Under the pieces are notes generated by a model. The model saw only the letters and a list, made by a program, of their open reading frames with translations. It was not told the origin of the DNA and searched no databases. The position numbers and the translations under genes are program-made. This document shows positions 6,582 to 48,184 of a stretch of DNA of 64,000 nt, piece after piece. Each line of letters begins with the position of its first letter. The first letter of the stretch is position 1. This DNA is from an uncultured Candidatus Saccharibacteria bacterium (GTDB taxonomy: Bacteria; Patescibacteriota; Saccharimonadia; Saccharimonadales; JACDBH01): assembly GCA_964644965.1 (NCBI GenBank), contig CAZXYN010000001.1, forward strand, positions 221,556 through 285,555. Direction: 5' to 3'.

Positions 6582-7007
6582 CTAGCGACGACGTCGAGAC
6601 TTGAGTCCGGCAACCTGCAGGCGCACCGCTGAGCGGTCAATTAGGCTCTGGGCCTGTTCTAGACTTACCTGATCTTTGGCTTCGGCCTTGAGTTTTTGAG
6701 CACGCTCCATTGCGGCTTTTGCCTCTTCTTCACTGATTTCGTCAGAGGCATCGGCTTCGTCAACCAAGACACGCAAACTGTTGCCCGATACTTCTATTGC
6801 GCCACCAGAAATGGCAAAGTGTTCCATCATGTCGTCTGGCTCATTACTGTTACGGCGCACAGATATTGCACCGGCCTTAGCAACGCTGATTAGCGGCATA
6901 TGGCCAGGCAGCACCCCAATCTCACCATCCATGGTCGGTAGGATAATCTCATAAACTTCCTCAGAGAATTTGACGCCGTCCAAACTAACTAGCTGAAAGT
7001 TAATCAC
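6582..7007 (-). CDS. atpC: F1 ATP synthase epsilon subunit
   Basis: FQLVSLDGVKFSEEVYEIILPTMDGEIGVLPGHMPLIS pattern; last gene of the atp operon; GTG start at 7005-7007. Confidence 0.85.
   Translation of the reverse strand: MINFQLVSLDGVKFSEEVYEIILPTMDGEIGVLPGHMPLISVAKAGAISVRRNSNEPDDMMEHFAISGGAIEVSGNSLRVLVDEADASDEISEEEAKAAMERAQKLKAEAKDQVSLEQAQSLIDRSAVRLQVAGLKSRRRR

Positions 7008-7370: not shown

Positions 7371-7371
<1 letters not shown>
7000..7371 (-). CDS. hypothetical acidic protein inserted between atpD and atpC
   Basis: 123-aa ORF fills the gap exactly; its start overlaps the atpD stop (TAATG, 7369-7373) and its stop overlaps the atpC GTG start by 8 nt. Confidence 0.6.
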
Positions 7372-9074
<1,703 letters not shown>

Positions 9075-9078
<4 letters not shown>

Positions 9079-9260
9079 AAATCTTCCTCGTTTGATTCTA
9101 GCTGTTCTGGAAAAATATCACTGCACATAAGTGCAGCCGCATCACTGGTAACCGCTTCACGATACCTAAGTATCGAGTTTTCATTGTCTGGTCTCTGATT
9201 TGCTGCAATTCGTGCATCCACAACACGCTGCACTTTCATTGCTTCTGATGCTGATATCAT
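9075..9260 (-). CDS. hypothetical small acidic protein inserted between atpG and atpD (second of three)
   Basis: 61-aa ORF with ATGA overlaps at both ends (9257-9260 and 9075-9078); GGAGG lies 7 nt upstream of the ATG. Confidence 0.45.
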
Positions 9261-9556
9261 TTTATTGCCTCCGCTGATTTTACAGAATGGACCTGAATGC
9301 TCCGCTCTAGCATAGACCTTGCTATGTAATGTATATCAAAGCCTCGCTGAGTATTGAAATCAAAACCATAGTCGCCTAAGGCTTCCTTGAGATCCTCTTC
9401 GGTCTCACCAATAATCCCCATATCCCAGGCCGCTTCTAATAGCTGGTGAAAATTATCTGCCTCATCCCCGGCATCCACGCCAAGATATTGGCGTGATTCT
9501 GCAAAAGCCTGATGATAGAATTCAACTGTCTGGGCCATGGTATCTCTACTACTCAT
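9257..9556 (-). CDS. hypothetical small acidic protein inserted between atpG and atpD (first of three)
   Basis: 99-aa ORF; ATGA overlap with the atpG stop (9553-9556); GGAGG SD inside the atpG 3' end; C-terminus AEAIK copies the AtpG C-terminus AEAMK. Confidence 0.55.
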   Translation of the reverse strand: MSSRDTMAQTVEFYHQAFAESRQYLGVDAGDEADNFHQLLEAAWDMGIIGETEEDLKEALGDYGFDFNTQRGFDIHYIARSMLERSIQVHSVKSAEAIK

Positions 9557-10422
9557 TTCATTGCCTCCGCTCCACCGGTTATTTCTGCAAGCTCCTGGGT
9601 AATTTTGGCCTGGCGAGCCGTGTTGAATTCCAGCGTGAGATCGTCGATAATTTCGGTCGCGTTATCAGTCGCGTTTTTCATACTTAGCATACGCATGGAC
9701 TGTTCGGATGCGATAGATTCGAGTAGTGCCTGCCAAATCTGAACCTCTAGCAAACGTTCGGTTACATTTTCTAACACTTCGTTAACTGACGGTTCAAAAG
9801 TCACGTCGCTAAGCGGCTGCTCCTCAACATCTTCTTCGTCAAAGATTGCAGGCAGTATTGCTAAGCTTTGGGCGATCTGAGTAATGTTTGACTTGTGCTC
9901 TGTATAAATAAGACGAACCTCGTCTGTTGATTCCGTCCTATATTGCTCAACTACTGTGTCCAAGATTGGACGAATATCATTAGCATCAGGCTTGTCGCCA
10001 AAATCAGTATAGGCGGCTACGATATCAATATTCTCGACCCGGTTTAAAAACTGTGCGCCGCGCTTACCAATAACAATGACCTGACTGTTGATAGATTCTT
10101 TGCGGTCACCAGCAACCGCTCGGGTCAAGAGCTTGATTACATTGGCATTATAAGCACCAGCCAGCCCGCGATCAGAAGTAATTACTATGTACAAACGATT
10201 CTTAATAGGCCTAGTCTTGTACAGTGGATGCTCGTTTATTTCCGTCACTGAGGTTAGCCTAGACAACATAGAGTGTGCCGCCTGGCGGTAAGCACGGCCA
10301 CGATGAGCCGCCTCGGTTGCTTTACGCATTTTTGACGCGGCAACAAGCTCCATAGCTTTGGTAATCTGCTTAGTATTCTTGACGCTGCCAATCCGGCGCT
10401 TGAGCTGCTGGGTACTAGCCAT
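9553..10422 (-). CDS. atpG: F1 ATP synthase gamma subunit
   Basis: MASTQQLKRRIGSVKNTKQITKAMELVAASKMRKA and C-terminal RQAKITQELAEITGGAEA are typical of gamma. Confidence 0.9.
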   Translation of the reverse strand: MASTQQLKRRIGSVKNTKQITKAMELVAASKMRKATEAAHRGRAYRQAAHSMLSRLTSVTEINEHPLYKTRPIKNRLYIVITSDRGLAGAYNANVIKLLTRAVAGDRKESINSQVIVIGKRGAQFLNRVENIDIVAAYTDFGDKPDANDIRPILDTVVEQYRTESTDEVRLIYTEHKSNITQIAQSLAILPAIFDEEDVEEQPLSDVTFEPSVNEVLENVTERLLEVQIWQALLESIASEQSMRMLSMKNATDNATEIIDDLTLEFNTARQAKITQELAEITGGAEAMK

Positions 10423-10439: not shown

Positions 10440-10471
10440 GTAGAAGGTAGAAAGTAGAAAGTAGAAAGTAG
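10440..10471. repeat. 7-nt tandem repeat (GTAGAAA-like, about 4.5 copies)
   Basis: gtagaag gtagaaa gtagaaa gtagaaa gtag, immediately upstream (minus-strand sense) of the atpG SD GGAGGT. Confidence 0.9.
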
Positions 10472-10472
10472 T

Positions 10473-10883
10473 TTAAACATCAACTTCTCCTTCTAGATAT
10501 TCCCGCACACTAAGTCCGCCGATAGTATGACGACGCTGGACATCCTTAGAATCAAGCCATTCTTCAACAAAATCATATATAAATCCTGGGGGAGTTGATT
10601 CTTCGGGCCATTCGCTAGCCGCGGCATTGCGCTTCATAGTTAATGCATAACTAGCCCCAAGAAAGGCATGCTGCTCAGGTGAGTCTATGTCGGCACGTCG
10701 CAGTACTTCGCGCGCCATGTAGCTAGAAAAAACGGCAAGAAGATAGTCGCTGCCTTCCACGTCTCCTTGTTCACCTACAAGCAACTTCCTTAGCATACCC
10801 AGTTCTTTATCTGTAAGAATGCGTTCACTGTCTGAGCCCATAGCTGGCACTTTAACTTCAACTGTATGAACATTCTCAGCCAT
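10473..10883 (-). CDS. hypothetical acidic protein inserted between atpA and atpG
   Basis: 136-aa co-oriented ORF occupying most of the atpA-atpG spacer; no motif recognised. Confidence 0.55.
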   Translation of the reverse strand: MAENVHTVEVKVPAMGSDSERILTDKELGMLRKLLVGEQGDVEGSDYLLAVFSSYMAREVLRRADIDSPEQHAFLGASYALTMKRNAAASEWPEESTPPGFIYDFVEEWLDSKDVQRRHTIGGLSVREYLEGEVDV

Positions 10884-11005: not shown

Positions 11006-12559
11006 CTATTCCTTCTCCGTAGGTTTATAGCTATCAGCAACCTGATTAGCAAGTTTTAGGATTGTCTCGCGGTCTTTGTCATCAGGTTCGTTGCCGGCGT
11101 CAATATGCTCCAGAACTTTTTTGTGTTTGTTCTTGAATTCGCGGAGCAGAGCAGCCTCGGCTGTCTTGATCTTGGATACTTCAACCTTGTCGAATGCACC
11201 ACTGGTAGCTGCAAGCAACATGACGTACATCTGCCAGGTGGCATACGGGCTAAATTGTGGCTGTTTGAGCAGCTCAGTTAGGCGAGTTCCACGCTCAATA
11301 CGCTGCTTAGTGTCAGCATCGAGGTCGGTACTAAACTGGCTAAAGCTCGCTAGCTCGCGGAACTGCGCCAGATCAACACGAAGTGATTTAGCCACTGACT
11401 TGACAGCTTTTGTCTGAGCCGAACCACCCACGCGTGAAACTGATAGACCAACTGACACGGCCGGGCGAATACCTTGGTAGAACAGGTTAGTTTCCATGAA
11501 AATCTGACCGTCGGTGATAGAAATCACGTTGGTCGGAATATAGGCAGAGATGTCTCCAGCCTGAGTTTCGATAATCGGCAGGGCAGTCAATGAGCCAGCA
11601 CCAAGGTCGTCACTGAGCTTTGCAGCACGCTCTAGCAATCTAGAGTGCAAGTAGAAGACATCACCTGGGTAGGCTTCGCGTCCTGGTGGACGGCGGAGAA
11701 GCAAACTCATTTGCCGATAAGCTGCAGCATGCTTAGAAAGATCATCGTAGATAATCAGTGCGTGCTGTTTGTTGTCGCGGAAATATTCACCCATGGCACA
11801 GCCAGCGTAAGGAGCTAGGTACTGCAGCGGGGCAGGGTCGGCAGCAGAAGTTGCGACGACGATAGACTGCTCCATAACACCTTCGCGCTTTAGTCGTTCG
11901 ACAAGACGAGCAATTTTGCTCATCTTTTGACCAACAGCCACGTAGATGTTAATCACACCGGTATTTTGCTGATGCTGGTTGATCATCGTGTCGACAGCCA
12001 CGGCAGTCTTACCGGTCTGACGGTCGCCGATGATCAGCTCACGCTGGCCACGGCCGATTGGCACCATGGAGTCAATGGCAATGATTCCAGTCATTAATGG
12101 TTCATGAACAGACTTACGAGCCAGCACACCTGGGGCGATTCGTTCTGCCGGCGAGACTTGGGTAGACTTAATTGCGCCTTTGCCGTCTAGTGGACGACCA
12201 AGCGGATCAACCACGCGGCCGACTAGTTCAGGTCCAACTGGCACTTCTACGACACGACCAGTTCGGTGAGCCTTGGCACCAGCCTTCACTTGAGTGTCTT
12301 CGCCGAGCAACACAGCGCCAATTTCTTCTTGCCCCAGGTTGAACGCGAACGCAGTCACTGGACTACCATCGGTAGACTCCAGCTCGACCATTTCGTTATA
12401 ACCAACTGATGTTAGTCCATAAATCCAAATAACACCGTCACCAACGCGGGTAACAACGCCTGTTTCTTCGATTTCTGGACGTTTTTTGAGCTCGGCAATC
12501 GCCGTTCGAATATCGGCCGAGAGCTCTGCAATAGATACGTCTTTCATATTTGTTGCCAT
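11006..12559 (-). CDS. atpA: F1 ATP synthase alpha subunit
   Basis: P-loop GDRQTGKTA; alpha-subunit pattern along the full 517 aa. Confidence 0.95.
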
Positions 12560-16009: not shown

Positions 16010-16579
16010 ATGGCGTTTGAGGATTATAAAACCAAAAAATCGGTTGTAGTTGTCTACACCGGAGAGGGCAAGGGCAAGACCTCGGCCTCTGTTGGTCTGC
16101 TGGCACGTAGTCTCGGCGCAGGCTGGCGTGTAGCGTTTGTGCAATTTATCAAATACTGGCAGGTGAGCGAACACGATTTTATAGAAAAGATTCAGCCGCT
16201 CTACGAAGACAAACTACTTTTTTACAAGGGTGGAAAAGGCTTTTATAACGCCGGTGAGATTTCCGAAAAAGACGTCACCGAAACCGAACACAAACAAGCC
16301 GCACTAGAAACCTTCAAGGTAGCCGAGAACGCCGCTAACAGTGGCGATTATGACCTAGTCATCTGTGACGAGATAAACAACGCAGTCCACGACGGCCTGC
16401 TTACAAAGATGCAGCTAGAGAAGCTCATCGCAAATAGGTCAGAAAAAACTAGTCTGTGTCTGACGGGACGCAATTTTCCAGAAGAACTTCTTGAAAAGGC
16501 TGATATCGCAACCCACATGACCAAAATGAAGCATCACTTCGATGATAAGTTTCTGGCTAACAAGGGAATCGATTACTGA
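16010..16579 (+). CDS. cobO: cob(I)yrinic acid a,c-diamide / cob(I)alamin adenosyltransferase (CobO/BtuR type)
   Basis: VVVYTGEGKGKTSASVGLLARSLGAGWRVAFVQFIK P-loop pattern and LVICDEIN are typical of the family. Confidence 0.85.
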   Translation: MAFEDYKTKKSVVVVYTGEGKGKTSASVGLLARSLGAGWRVAFVQFIKYWQVSEHDFIEKIQPLYEDKLLFYKGGKGFYNAGEISEKDVTETEHKQAALETFKVAENAANSGDYDLVICDEINNAVHDGLLTKMQLEKLIANRSEKTSLCLTGRNFPEELLEKADIATHMTKMKHHFDDKFLANKGIDY

Positions 16580-16706
16580 TATGAATGTCCTGCTGCAGCT
16601 AGGGGAGAGCAGCCGGAGCAAGCGGATTTATTCCGCTGCCCCGCGCGATGAGAGGGGATGTTCCCCTCTCATAAGGCATAGCCGTAACAAAGGAATCGAC
16701 TACTGA
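16558..16706 (+). repeat. 22-nt direct duplication of the cobO 3' end flanking a 105-nt hairpin-rich insert
   Basis: taacaagggaatcgattactga (16558-16579) versus taacaaaggaatcgactactga (16685-16706); the 2 mismatches are both synonymous for NKGIDY-stop. Confidence 0.85.
16598..16706 (+). promoter_or_regulatory. candidate structured leader RNA upstream of TerC (possible divergent yybP-ykoY/Mn riboswitch)
   Basis: GGGGAGAGCAGCC (16602-16614) resembles the GGGGAGUAGC core; hairpins at 16621-16637 and 16648-16672 (11 bp); a TerC gene lies downstream. Confidence 0.25.
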
Positions 16707-31857: not shown

Positions 31858-31950
31858 GCCGACCCGACAGACCTGGATTTTCTCAACTGAAAAAAGAAAT
31901 TCGGCGGGGAAATCTCAAAAGATATGCAAAAGTCTGAGCGGGCGGTTCGC
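31858..31950 (+). repeat. copy A of a ~90-nt imperfect repeat with internal inverted arms
   Basis: Core aaaaaagaaattcggcggggaaatctcaaaagatatgcaaa (31890-31930); arms gccgacccgacagac and gtctgagcgggcggttcg; near-copy at 33246-33345. Confidence 0.75.
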
Positions 31951-43738: not shown

Positions 43739-43813
43739 GGCCTCATCGTCTAACGGTTAGGACATCAGGTTCTCATCCTGGCAATCGGGGTTCGATTCCC
43801 CGTGAGGTCACCA
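43739..43813 (+). tRNA. tRNA-Glu (anticodon CUC)
   Basis: GGCCTCA acceptor, D-arm GTCTAACGGTTAGGAC, anticodon loop TTCTCAT, T-arm CGGGGTTCGATTCCCCG, TGAGGTC-A-CCA encoded. Confidence 0.9.
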
Positions 43814-43881: not shown

Positions 43882-43998
43882 ACAATCGGGTGAGGTCTGC
43901 CAGTGGCAGGCCGCAAGGAAACCTTCCGATGGCAACTGGTTGCCAATAGAGAAGTTTCGGGCTCGCCGAAGGTGAGTCGATTCCCCGTGAGGTTACCA
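43882..43998 (+). repeat. two degenerate partial copies of the tRNA-Glu 3' end
   Basis: 43977-43998 TCGATTCCCCGTGAGGTTACCA matches tRNA 43792-43813 at 21/22; 43882-43897 CAATCGGGTGAGGTC equals the tRNA 3' part with the T-loop deleted. Confidence 0.85.
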
Positions 43999-46930: not shown

Positions 46931-48184
46931 ATGGCAAAAATAATGCTCGTCGAAGACGACAACAACCTGCGCGAAATATACGAAGCGCGTTTGCTGGCAG
47001 AGGGTCATGAGATTATTTCGGCACATGATGGTGAAGAAGCATTGGCACTTGCTGTCAAAGAAAAGCCTGAACTAATTATCTCCGATGTCATGATGCCAAA
47101 AATCAGCGGCTTTGACATGCTCGACATCCTACGTAGCTCACCAGAGACCAAACACACCAAAGTCATCATGATGACAGCGCTGTCACAGCTAGAGGATAAA
47201 GAACGTGCTGACAGACTTGGTGCCGATAGATATCTTGTTAAATCACAAGTAACGCTAGAGGATGTCATTCGCGTCGCCCGCGAAGTCCTAGAAGGACCTG
47301 GTGCCACAGAAACAAATAATAGTGCAACCGAACCAATTGCGCCGATAGGAGGAATAACCACCGATATGCCACCAACAGCACCTAATCCAGAACCAGAACA
47401 AACTCCACTGCAGCCAGCTGCTGACATGCCAGTCGCACAACCTCCAGCGGACGATGCTTCACAAGCTCCTGTCGAGCCAGCCGCTCCGGCAGCTGATCCT
47501 AGTGCTCAGCCTCTAGTAGATACTCCTGAGCCAGCAGCTGCAGAACCAGTTGTCGAGCCAGCTCCAACCGAGCCGGTTTTAGAAACACCAGCTGAGCCTG
47601 TTGCTCCTGAGACGCCAGTAGAGACTCCAGCTCCAGAGGCACCTGTAGAAACTCCAACCGAGCCACAAATCGAAAACGCTCAGACTAGCAGTGACGAGCT
47701 TAGCACCGTTGAGTCTCAGATTAATGATTTTGTTGCTAATAGTTCTGGAGAGCCAGCCGCTCCGGTTGCTCCGGTTATTACAGAAGCGCCCGTCGAACCA
47801 TCAACTTCAGATGGCTTCGTAACAGAACCTACACCAGTAGAGGTTCCTGCCGAACCAGTCGTAGATACACCGGTAGATGTACCTGAGACGCCAGTAGAGG
47901 CTCCAGTCGAAACACAGTCAGAACCCGCTGCACCCGAGACAGAATCTCCAGTCCTTGATGCCCCTAGTGCAAACAAGCGAACCATTCAGCCGCTTGGTGA
48001 CCCAACAGCAACCCCAGACCTAGAAGCGCTGGCTGCCAAAGAAGCCGAAAAAGAAGCTGCTCAACAGATTATGACTGACGCCGCTAACGCAGCAAGTCCA
48101 GCGCCGCAGCCAGCCCCAGAAGCTCCAGCTGAACCTACCAGCTCGGACAACAAGCCAAACGATCCAAACGCCATTGCGCTCTAA
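46931..48184 (+). CDS. response-regulator receiver domain fused to a ~290-aa Pro/Ala/Glu/Thr/Val-rich low-complexity tail
   Basis: KIMLVEDDNNLREIYE...LIISDVMMPKISGFD...YLVKS receiver domain; then PEPEQTPLQPAADMPVAQPPADD...PVETPAPEAPVETP repeats. Confidence 0.8.
   Translation: MAKIMLVEDDNNLREIYEARLLAEGHEIISAHDGEEALALAVKEKPELIISDVMMPKISGFDMLDILRSSPETKHTKVIMMTALSQLEDKERADRLGADRYLVKSQVTLEDVIRVAREVLEGPGATETNNSATEPIAPIGGITTDMPPTAPNPEPEQTPLQPAADMPVAQPPADDASQAPVEPAAPAADPSAQPLVDTPEPAAAEPVVEPAPTEPVLETPAEPVAPETPVETPAPEAPVETPTEPQIENAQTSSDELSTVESQINDFVANSSGEPAAPVAPVITEAPVEPSTSDGFVTEPTPVEVPAEPVVDTPVDVPETPVEAPVETQSEPAAPETESPVLDAPSANKRTIQPLGDPTATPDLEALAAKEAEKEAAQQIMTDAANAASPAPQPAPEAPAEPTSSDNKPNDPNAIAL

Follow-up and report, generated by a model that had tools for sequence, protein, structure and literature searches.

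Why does a small open reading frame (ORF) inside the ATP synthase operon of a Saccharibacterium repeat at its end the last bases of the gene in front of it? The question is raised by a 64,000-nucleotide stretch of DNA (the window) from a member of the Saccharibacteria (TM7), which carries a complete F-type ATP synthase operon on the minus strand (6.5–14.6 kb, order atpB-E-F-H-A-G-D-C) and whose nearest AtpG, at 90% identity, comes from Saccharibacteria metagenome bins. Between atpG, encoding the F1 gamma subunit, and atpD, encoding the F1 beta subunit, stand three ORFs named X99a, X61 and X99b. They are linked to atpG and to one another by ATGA stop/start overlaps, with no intergenic DNA from atpG through X99b; X99b stops at a TAG located 11 nt ahead of the atpD start. 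The 3' end of X99a, the first of the three, is a true second copy of the terminal coupling module of atpG. The explanation favoured here, at about an even chance, is that this copy is the scar of an illegitimate, probably homology-anchored, recombination that joined spacer ORF modules. Throughout the text, WIN denotes the locus of the window, L with a number a related locus, and P with a number a match from the protein databases.

The window contains exactly two instances of the pattern AGCGGAGGCAAT(G/A)AAATG, spaced by 296 nt. Copy 1, AGCGGAGGCAATGAAATG, is placed at the atpG stop (9571..9554, minus strand), and copy 2, AGCGGAGGCAATAAAATG, at the stop of X99a (9275..9258, minus strand). The repeat was counted as an 18-mer, of which 17/18 positions are identical; with the last A of TGA included it measures 19 nt and 18/19 are identical. 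atpG closes with ...GGT GGA GCG GAG GCA ATG AAA TGA (TGGAEAMK-stop) and X99a with ...TCA GCG GAG GCA ATA AAA TGA (VKSAEAIK-stop). In both copies GGAGG is followed by 7 nt and then by an ATG overlapping the TGA (ATGA), so that the Shine-Dalgarno (SD) sequence lies inside the upstream ORF. A first-pass annotation of the window had reported the repeat in these terms and had read each copy as AEA(M/I)K plus stop, a GGAGG SD and the next ATG; both statements hold in the sequence.

When up to three mismatches were allowed, the pattern still gave only two matches in the window (shuffles: mean 0.12, with 1 of 100 shuffles reaching two). The window contains 35 SD-plus-ATGA sites, and the other 33 are unlike the 18-mer. 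With two matches and differing SD-ATGA sites elsewhere, a generic SD/stop motif, the objection that the first-pass annotation had itself foreseen, is ruled out. Direct repeats of at least 17/18 at a spacing of 25–1500 nt numbered five in the whole window, compared to 0–1 in shuffles.

The atpG tail encodes the canonical C-terminus of gamma, GGAEA-I/M-K, and its codons for Ala-Glu-Ala contain the GGAGG. An atpG end of the form GCGGAGGC-N-AT-N-(A/C)AA-TGA is conserved across the phylum irrespective of the following gene, and GCGGAGGCNAT..A-TGA is kept in L001–L005 and in most of the 73 relatives of the genome collection. Judged from this conservation, the atpG tail would be the ancestral sequence. 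The atpG tails of L001, L003 and L083 have exactly the sequence of copy 2 (GCGGAGGCAATAAAATGA).

For recurrence, the atpG-atpD spacers of 105 loci were scanned, each with its own atpG tail, at a cut-off of at least 15/18; same-strand coding sequence of equal length served as control. Tail copies were present in 7 of the 105 loci including WIN (17/18 in WIN, L089 and L006; 16/18 in L086; 15/18 in L127, L126 and L041). The control reached 13/18 at most, and the match distribution was bimodal. Each of the seven copies closes the first spacer ORF, which starts at the atpG junction; these ORFs encode 37–186 aa and are mutually unrelated. Beyond the seven, atpG-type tails were found in L168, L164 and L001. 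The X99a homologue of L001 ends in GGAGCGG-TAAAATGA, which is the L001 atpG tail minus AGGCAA. At L164:316-1239 an X99a-like domain continues in frame into a downstream ORF of about 200 aa (307 aa in total); the fusion passes through a degenerate, frameshifted atpG-type tail (GGAGCGGGAGGCTAAAATGA) with its TGA out of frame and is an example of gene fusion at a coupling junction. Copy length varies among the lineages: 19 nt in WIN, about 18 in L006, 24 in L168, about 27 in L041, and 15 with a 6-nt deletion in L001.

At L126:2135-2248 a mini-ORF of 37 codons lies between the atpG tail GCGGAGGCAATATCGTGA and the copy ACAGAGGTAATATCGTGA, with GTGA overlaps at both; it is the smallest 'cassette' found with a duplicated tail. 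At L002:7262-7560 the last ORF ahead of atpD opens with MATAES (TAATGGCTACAGCAGA), while atpD itself starts with MAIAEK (TAATGGCAATAGCAGA; 15/18). This may be a mirror-image scar, formed by duplication of the 5' head of the downstream gene. L002 was the one candidate for such a mirror signature, and the distribution of matches to the downstream 5' end was no different from that of the reverse-complement control.

Could the coupling function alone have produced these ends? A strong SD placed 7 nt before ATGA would push ORF ends to x-E-A-I-K-stop, and the likeness of the copies would then be functional, not historical. The spacing does force the frame NNG-GAG-GNN, and several other junctions close with E-V-I-K, E-V-I-S or E-I-V-Q. 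However, about 9/10 positions free of SD/ATGA constraint match too, and some 20 other ATGA-coupled spacer junctions solve the same task with other SD positions and other spacers, matching at 13–14 of 24 positions at most. Function alone therefore does not force the 18-mer. The copies of L168 and L041 moreover reach upstream Gly-Gly codons that have no SD role, and the bimodal match distribution with its low control maximum points the same way. Convergence of this kind is judged improbable.

That X99a is an accessory gene was seen from relatives in which it is missing. L083 (AtpG 90% identical), L003 and L005 are empty sites lacking X99a, as the first-pass annotation had hoped to find: in all of them atpG runs straight into an ORF of the X61 family. 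Homologues of X61 are L003 o70 (E = 4e-7), L001 o68 (E = 1.6e-4) and L005 o56 (E = 4e-4), and L083 o99 joins the family via L001 o68 (E = 7e-6). In L004, atpG runs straight into an ORF of the X99b family (o98; 38% identity to X99b, E = 6e-17). The annotation had proposed that a cassette of about 296 nt entered at the atpG junction and regenerated it. The geometry and the accessory, intercalated nature of X99a agree with this; as a lone insert X99a was misjudged, since its spacer has three coupled ORFs and the operon five extra ones in all. A relative with the ORF but without the duplicated junction, which the annotation had counted as evidence to the contrary, was half found, since the tail of the L001 homologue is degenerate and 6 nt short.

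To find homologues of X99a, HMMER was run exhaustively against 1.84 billion representative proteins, and a profile search followed. The scan yielded only three genuine relatives and the profile search a six-member family. Matches to large proteins (P0004, P0005, P0007 and P0008) were discarded as spurious, these being tetratricopeptide or other repeat proteins. The six-sequence alignment has 13 invariant residues and a conserved core that closes at x-V/L-H-S/G, beyond which the tail is variable. An AlphaFold2 model of X99a has four helices at a mean predicted local distance difference test score (pLDDT) of 72, with values below 50 for residues 93–99, the tail encoded by the repeat; no fold match for the model was found in the PDB (best E = 2.1).

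All family members with genomic context are located in atpG-atpD spacers, in differing slots. In WIN, L001 and L164 the member comes right after atpG; in L163, L165 and L168 it stands behind another ORF, and in L163 it is placed directly ahead of atpD. On a tree of AtpA, AtpG and AtpD, X99a is confined to the tip clade of WIN and L001, with L083 forming an unresolved trichotomy with both. The X99a of WIN resembles P0009 and P0010 (47–48%) more closely than the homologue (30–33%) in L001, the nearest relative of WIN. The cores of L165 and L168 are 85% identical at the nucleotide level, with a nonsynonymous divergence (dN) of 0.087 and a synonymous divergence (dS) of 0.57; the resulting dN/dS of about 0.15 indicates purifying selection. 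The flanking upstream ORF has a dS of 1.8, and at the 5' end of atpD nucleotide identity is 77%. With the core so much less diverged than these flanks, the cassette must have been exchanged more recently than they were. Homology between L165 and L168 stops exactly after the core. Beyond it, L168 has a 24-nt atpG-type tail (HGGAEAIS-TGA) and a downstream ORF different from that of L165, whose 86%-identical homologue ends in NKGEQ-TAA.

The family bears on a further explanation, by which the last 296 nt of atpG were duplicated in tandem. X99a would then be a diverged form of the C-terminal 97 residues of AtpG, of which only the selected end is still recognisable. Geometry and frame fit exactly: read from the overlapping ATG, the copy stays in frame because the unit length is 2 mod 3. 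A weak collinear likeness exists as well (FNTxR in WIN; in L001 a local alignment over 48 residues with a shuffle p of 0.03; LAFNxAR in ORF1 of L086, p = 0.03). Against this, BLASTP of X99a with AtpG gave E = 0.94, and hhalign of the six-member family with 148 AtpG sequences gave P = 0.15 over a non-collinear region. Local alignments compared with shuffles gave p = 0.03–0.07 in three of seven cases, and together with the non-significant BLASTP and hhalign results they do not support an origin of X99a from the AtpG C-terminus. Family members also occur away from atpG and are exchanged between lineages. The C-terminus of gamma is one long helix, whereas the model of X99a is a four-helix protein. 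A tandem duplication is hardly likely on this evidence. A tandem duplication spanning the junction, which would make the first two spacer ORFs paralogues of each other, was tried separately and gave no signal in 7/7 cases.

X99a belongs to a variable array. In a comparison set of 73 Saccharibacteria genomes, with Firmicutes as controls, the alpha/gamma, gamma/beta and beta/epsilon junctions hold 0–4 small ORFs. The atpB-E-F-H-A junctions are mostly compact, and hot spots are confined to atpA/atpG, atpG/atpD and atpD/atpC. Some Saccharibacteria genomes have no ORFs at all three junctions, and the Firmicutes controls had none. The spacer ORFs are hypervariable (129 of 167 are BLASTP singletons), and their families are mosaic relative to the AtpA/G/D tree. 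WIN and L001 share 90% identity in AtpG and 95% in AtpD, compared to 31–34% in the three atpG-atpD spacer ORFs and 44% in X123 of the atpD-atpC junction; synonymous sites between them are saturated (atpG dS ~1.8). Two contigs of the same strain, L081 and L082, are identical and offer no population variation to read. Full-text literature searches yielded no account of small ORFs in the atp operons of Saccharibacteria.

From these data a recombination mechanism, a direction of the event and a function in coupling are inferred as follows. Illegitimate recombination would have put together spacer ORF modules of different haplotypes. Homology-facilitated illegitimate recombination (HFIR) during natural transformation is the most plausible way, with atpG or atpD, both highly conserved, as its anchor. 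One of the breakpoints would lie some 20 nt before the stop codon of an atpG, and the module formerly right after atpG (here X61-X99b-atpD) would thus have kept an atpG tail in front. Selection would retain only in-frame joints with an SD plus ATGA, and the scar may have been kept because the copy supplies both for the next gene, with ribosomes continuing to flow to X61, X99b and atpD. X99a is a promoterless accessory gene set between atpG and the X61-X99b-atpD module. As a side effect it is bracketed by direct repeats, which could allow its precise excision. Natural competence is known from cultivated Saccharibacteria, as distinct from the source organism (PMC10633639), and HFIR has been proposed for analogous arrays of orphan modules (PMC5361080). 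A variable array between conserved anchor genes, as HFIR or sequential displacement would leave it, is present at the locus. So are a remnant of the atpG 3' end at the joint (the 7/105 loci together with L168, L164 and L001) and modules with histories discordant from their flanks (the dS values of L165/L168 and the mosaic families).

Several points weigh against such a scar. No donor haplotype or recombination intermediate was seen, and no microhomology was demonstrable at the joints. All scars are short, where random breakpoints should sometimes leave longer atpG fragments, and they occur in only the said seven spacers. The X99a homologues of WIN and L001 both carry an atpG-like tail despite the saturation of synonymous sites. 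A single old insertion should let unconstrained tail positions decay, so the tails call for acquisitions that were independent or more recent, for gene conversion at a later time, or for a constraint not yet explained. Likewise, the identity of copy 2 to the atpG tails of L001, L003 and L083 despite saturation calls for a young event, conversion or extra constraint. Finally, the copies may resemble the atpG tail resident in their own locus more than the tails of other genomes. They share resident synonymous variants (7/8 at the GCN site, p = 0.002) in cases that were chosen by similarity and hence biased; with cases chosen on constant positions only, each copy falls within the top 10–30% (hand-combined p ~0.07), which is suggestive only.

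Such a resemblance to the resident tail is what would be expected from short-patch gene conversion or template switching, the main and a serious rival of the recombination scar. X99a would have arrived with its own 3' end, which was later overwritten by the atpG tail lying 296 nt away in the same orientation. Conversion would produce an optimal coupling junction and refresh it repeatedly (concerted evolution). It would account for a copy 2 that equals the inferred ancestral atpG tail although WIN and L001 are saturated, for an L001 tail equal to the L001 atpG tail except for a 6-nt deletion, and for the sharp fall of identity just upstream of the repeat. On the other side, the flanking homology available for priming is only GGAGG and ATGA, and most ATGA junctions of the spacers are unconverted. 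In L165/L168 the tail changes along with the entire downstream ORF, which argues for a breakpoint and not for a patch. Conversion is considered a real, if minority, possibility.

The first-pass annotation had interpreted the repeat as a target duplication, and the broader form of this idea is a target-site duplication or an attL/attR pair left by a mobile element or a site-specific recombinase that aims at gene 3' ends. Integrase attachment (att) sites typically show direct repeats of the target's own 3' end, and a direct repeat equal to the target 3' end does stand on both sides of the insert. In addition, three gene 3' ends of the window are duplicated shortly downstream, namely those of atpG, of a gene annotated as cobO and of a tRNA gene. 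A transposon-type duplication, however, is not supported: terminal inverted repeats are absent (none at 9257-9275 or 9553-9571), the duplication length is not fixed (about 15 to 27 nt among lineages), and the insert has no second copy in the window. The five extra ORFs of the operon have no transposase or integrase match and no significant Pfam, PHROG or PADLOC match. The inserts behind atpG, cobO and the tRNA gene are mutually unrelated and each single-copy within the 64 kb, and the atpG insert is one in-frame, translationally coupled ORF without non-coding ends. An origin from an element or recombinase is thus rated very improbable.

A recurrent insertion mechanism shared with cobO had also been suggested. 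Recurrence was confirmed at atpG in other lineages; cobO shares only the geometry. Its 3' end, taacaagggaatcgattacTGA at 16558-16579, the last 22 nt of ORF 16010-16579 (...NKGIDY-TGA), is repeated 127 nt away on the plus strand at 16685-16706 (20/22). The cobO label of this ORF is that of the earlier annotation and was not confirmed against Pfam. The insert is 105 nt of non-coding DNA with strong hairpins (-49 kcal/mol, z = -2.5), is unrelated to those at atpG and the tRNA gene, and was lacking in 14 of 14 relatives checked; in L010 the next gene follows immediately.

Other close direct repeats were recorded in the window. For the tRNA gene at 43739-43810, the 3' end (T-arm, acceptor stem and CCA; 43791-43813) is repeated 185 nt downstream at 43976-43998 on the plus strand (21/23). 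Such a duplication classically marks an integration site or what is left of an integrated element, although the DNA separating the two copies is only about 160 nt long. Two more pairs were found: 47605-47630 (+276; 25/26) within ORF 46931-48184, and a pair of 21-23-nt segments at 31890-31930 with second copies about 1.39 kb downstream (+1388/1389).

Table 1. Features of the atp operon around the duplicated tail, in window coordinates.
Feature	Position	Strand	Description
Repeat copy 1, atpG terminal coupling module	9553..9571	-	(G)AEAMK codons, GGAGG SD, TGA, overlapping X99a ATG
Repeat copy 2, atpG-type tail	9257..9275	-	Last 5-6 X99a codons (SAEAIK), GGAGG, TGA, overlapping X61 ATG
atpG, F1 gamma subunit, 289 aa	9553..10422	-	Pfam PF00231, E = 1.5e-91; 90% identity to L001 and L083 AtpG
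X99a, 99 aa, accessory cassette gene	9257..9556	-	Acidic (pI 4.5), helical; six-member family
X61, 61 aa	9075..9260	-	Acidic; ATGA at both ends; motif (L/A)(V/M)(G/C)SD(I/F)FPE
X99b, 99 aa	8779..9078	-	Acidic; last ORF ahead of atpD; homologue L004 o98
atpD, F1 beta subunit	7371..8765	-	tblastn 95% identity to L001; ATG at 8765
X123, 123 aa	7000..7371	-	Acidic; atpD-atpC junction; same-slot homologues in L004, L013, L001, L090, L092
atpC, F1 epsilon subunit	6582..7007	-	Borders third hot-spot junction
X136, 136 aa	10473..10883	-	Acidic; in atpA-atpG junction
atpA, F1 alpha subunit	11006..12559	-	Borders first hot-spot junction

All five extra ORFs (Table 1) are small and acidic, with isoelectric points (pI) of 4.3-4.8, and lie among the F1 genes. 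Neither X136 nor X123 closes with a copy of the tail of its upstream gene, and X136 has no homologue in any of the fetched loci. No Rfam family was found in the operon region, and promoters inside the operon were not in excess. Terminator-like sites numbered 16, compared to 8.6 +/- 2.7 in shuffles. At about 10440-10475 on the minus strand, some five tandem heptamers CTACTTT (one of them the variant CTACCTT) lie in the 50 non-coding nt that separate X136 from the SD of atpG.

A wider proposal, quite unlikely as a whole, takes the alpha/gamma, gamma/beta and beta/epsilon junctions as dedicated, recombinase-free capture sites for promoterless small-ORF cassettes, with the atpG tail as a portable 'plug' that would let each new cassette in and couple its translation. 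The captured acidic mini-proteins, the X99a family among them, would be expressed with F1 and act as lineage-specific modulators of ATP synthase or of the interface between epibiont and host. One cultivated Saccharibacterium can grow on its host without the F1 complex, whose role in that organism is left open (PMC10633639). If the proposal is true, the core energy operon of an ultra-reduced epibiont phylum doubles as a hypervariable platform for tiny accessory genes. ORFs could then enter a coupled operon without an enzyme and without breaking it, by duplication of the upstream SD and stop/start tail. The locus would also provide a testable model for the origin and spread of orphan small genes in Patescibacteria and would flag uncharacterised proteins as co-expressed with F1.

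Among known systems, the orphan arrays of Rhs and contact-dependent inhibition (CDI) genes keep a fragment of the 3' end of the upstream gene at the joint, and the atp array is alike in this. With the immunity arrays of the Vibrio cholerae type VI secretion system (T6SS) and with Rhs/CDI C-terminal displacement it further shares conserved anchors, a hypervariable array, mosaic horizontal modules and the lack of an integrase (PMC5361080). Unlike those arrays, it is located inside a housekeeping F1 ATP synthase operon, and its modules are tiny acidic proteins, not toxin-immunity modules. The atp fragment measures 15–27 nt and doubles as SD and stop/start overlap, so the modules stay coupled.

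Enzyme-driven systems offer partial likenesses, and the atp array lacks their defining features. Integrative elements duplicate gene 3' ends as attL/attR, in tRNA, tmRNA and some protein genes. Here, too, the insert lies between direct repeats of the target 3' end, and atpG is left intact, but there is no integrase, the 296-nt insert is wholly one ORF, and repeat length varies between lineages. Integron cassettes form arrays of promoterless small ORFs behind an upstream promoter, with a short conserved sequence at both boundaries. The atp array resembles them in its promoterless small ORFs, its variability and its short conserved boundary sequence. It differs in having no IntI, attI or attC and in its 4-nt ORF overlaps, which leave no intergenic recombination site; no attC-type inverted repeat was found between the spacer ORFs, and no integrase was seen within the operon. 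In T4-type phages, promoter-stem-loop (PeSL) cassettes place hypervariable small ORFs between core genes, bracketed by a repeated expression signal that possibly aids shuffling, an arrangement that the atp array shares. The atp signal, in contrast, is translational (SD plus ATGA) and lies within coding sequence, and the host is cellular.

The biology of the locus is not categorically new, as translational coupling, scars of illegitimate recombination and arrays of orphan modules are all known. ATGA stop/start coupling with the SD inside the upstream gene is ordinary in bacterial operons, those of atp included. What sets this locus apart from ordinary ATGA coupling is that a second junction is now served by a copy of the atpG module.

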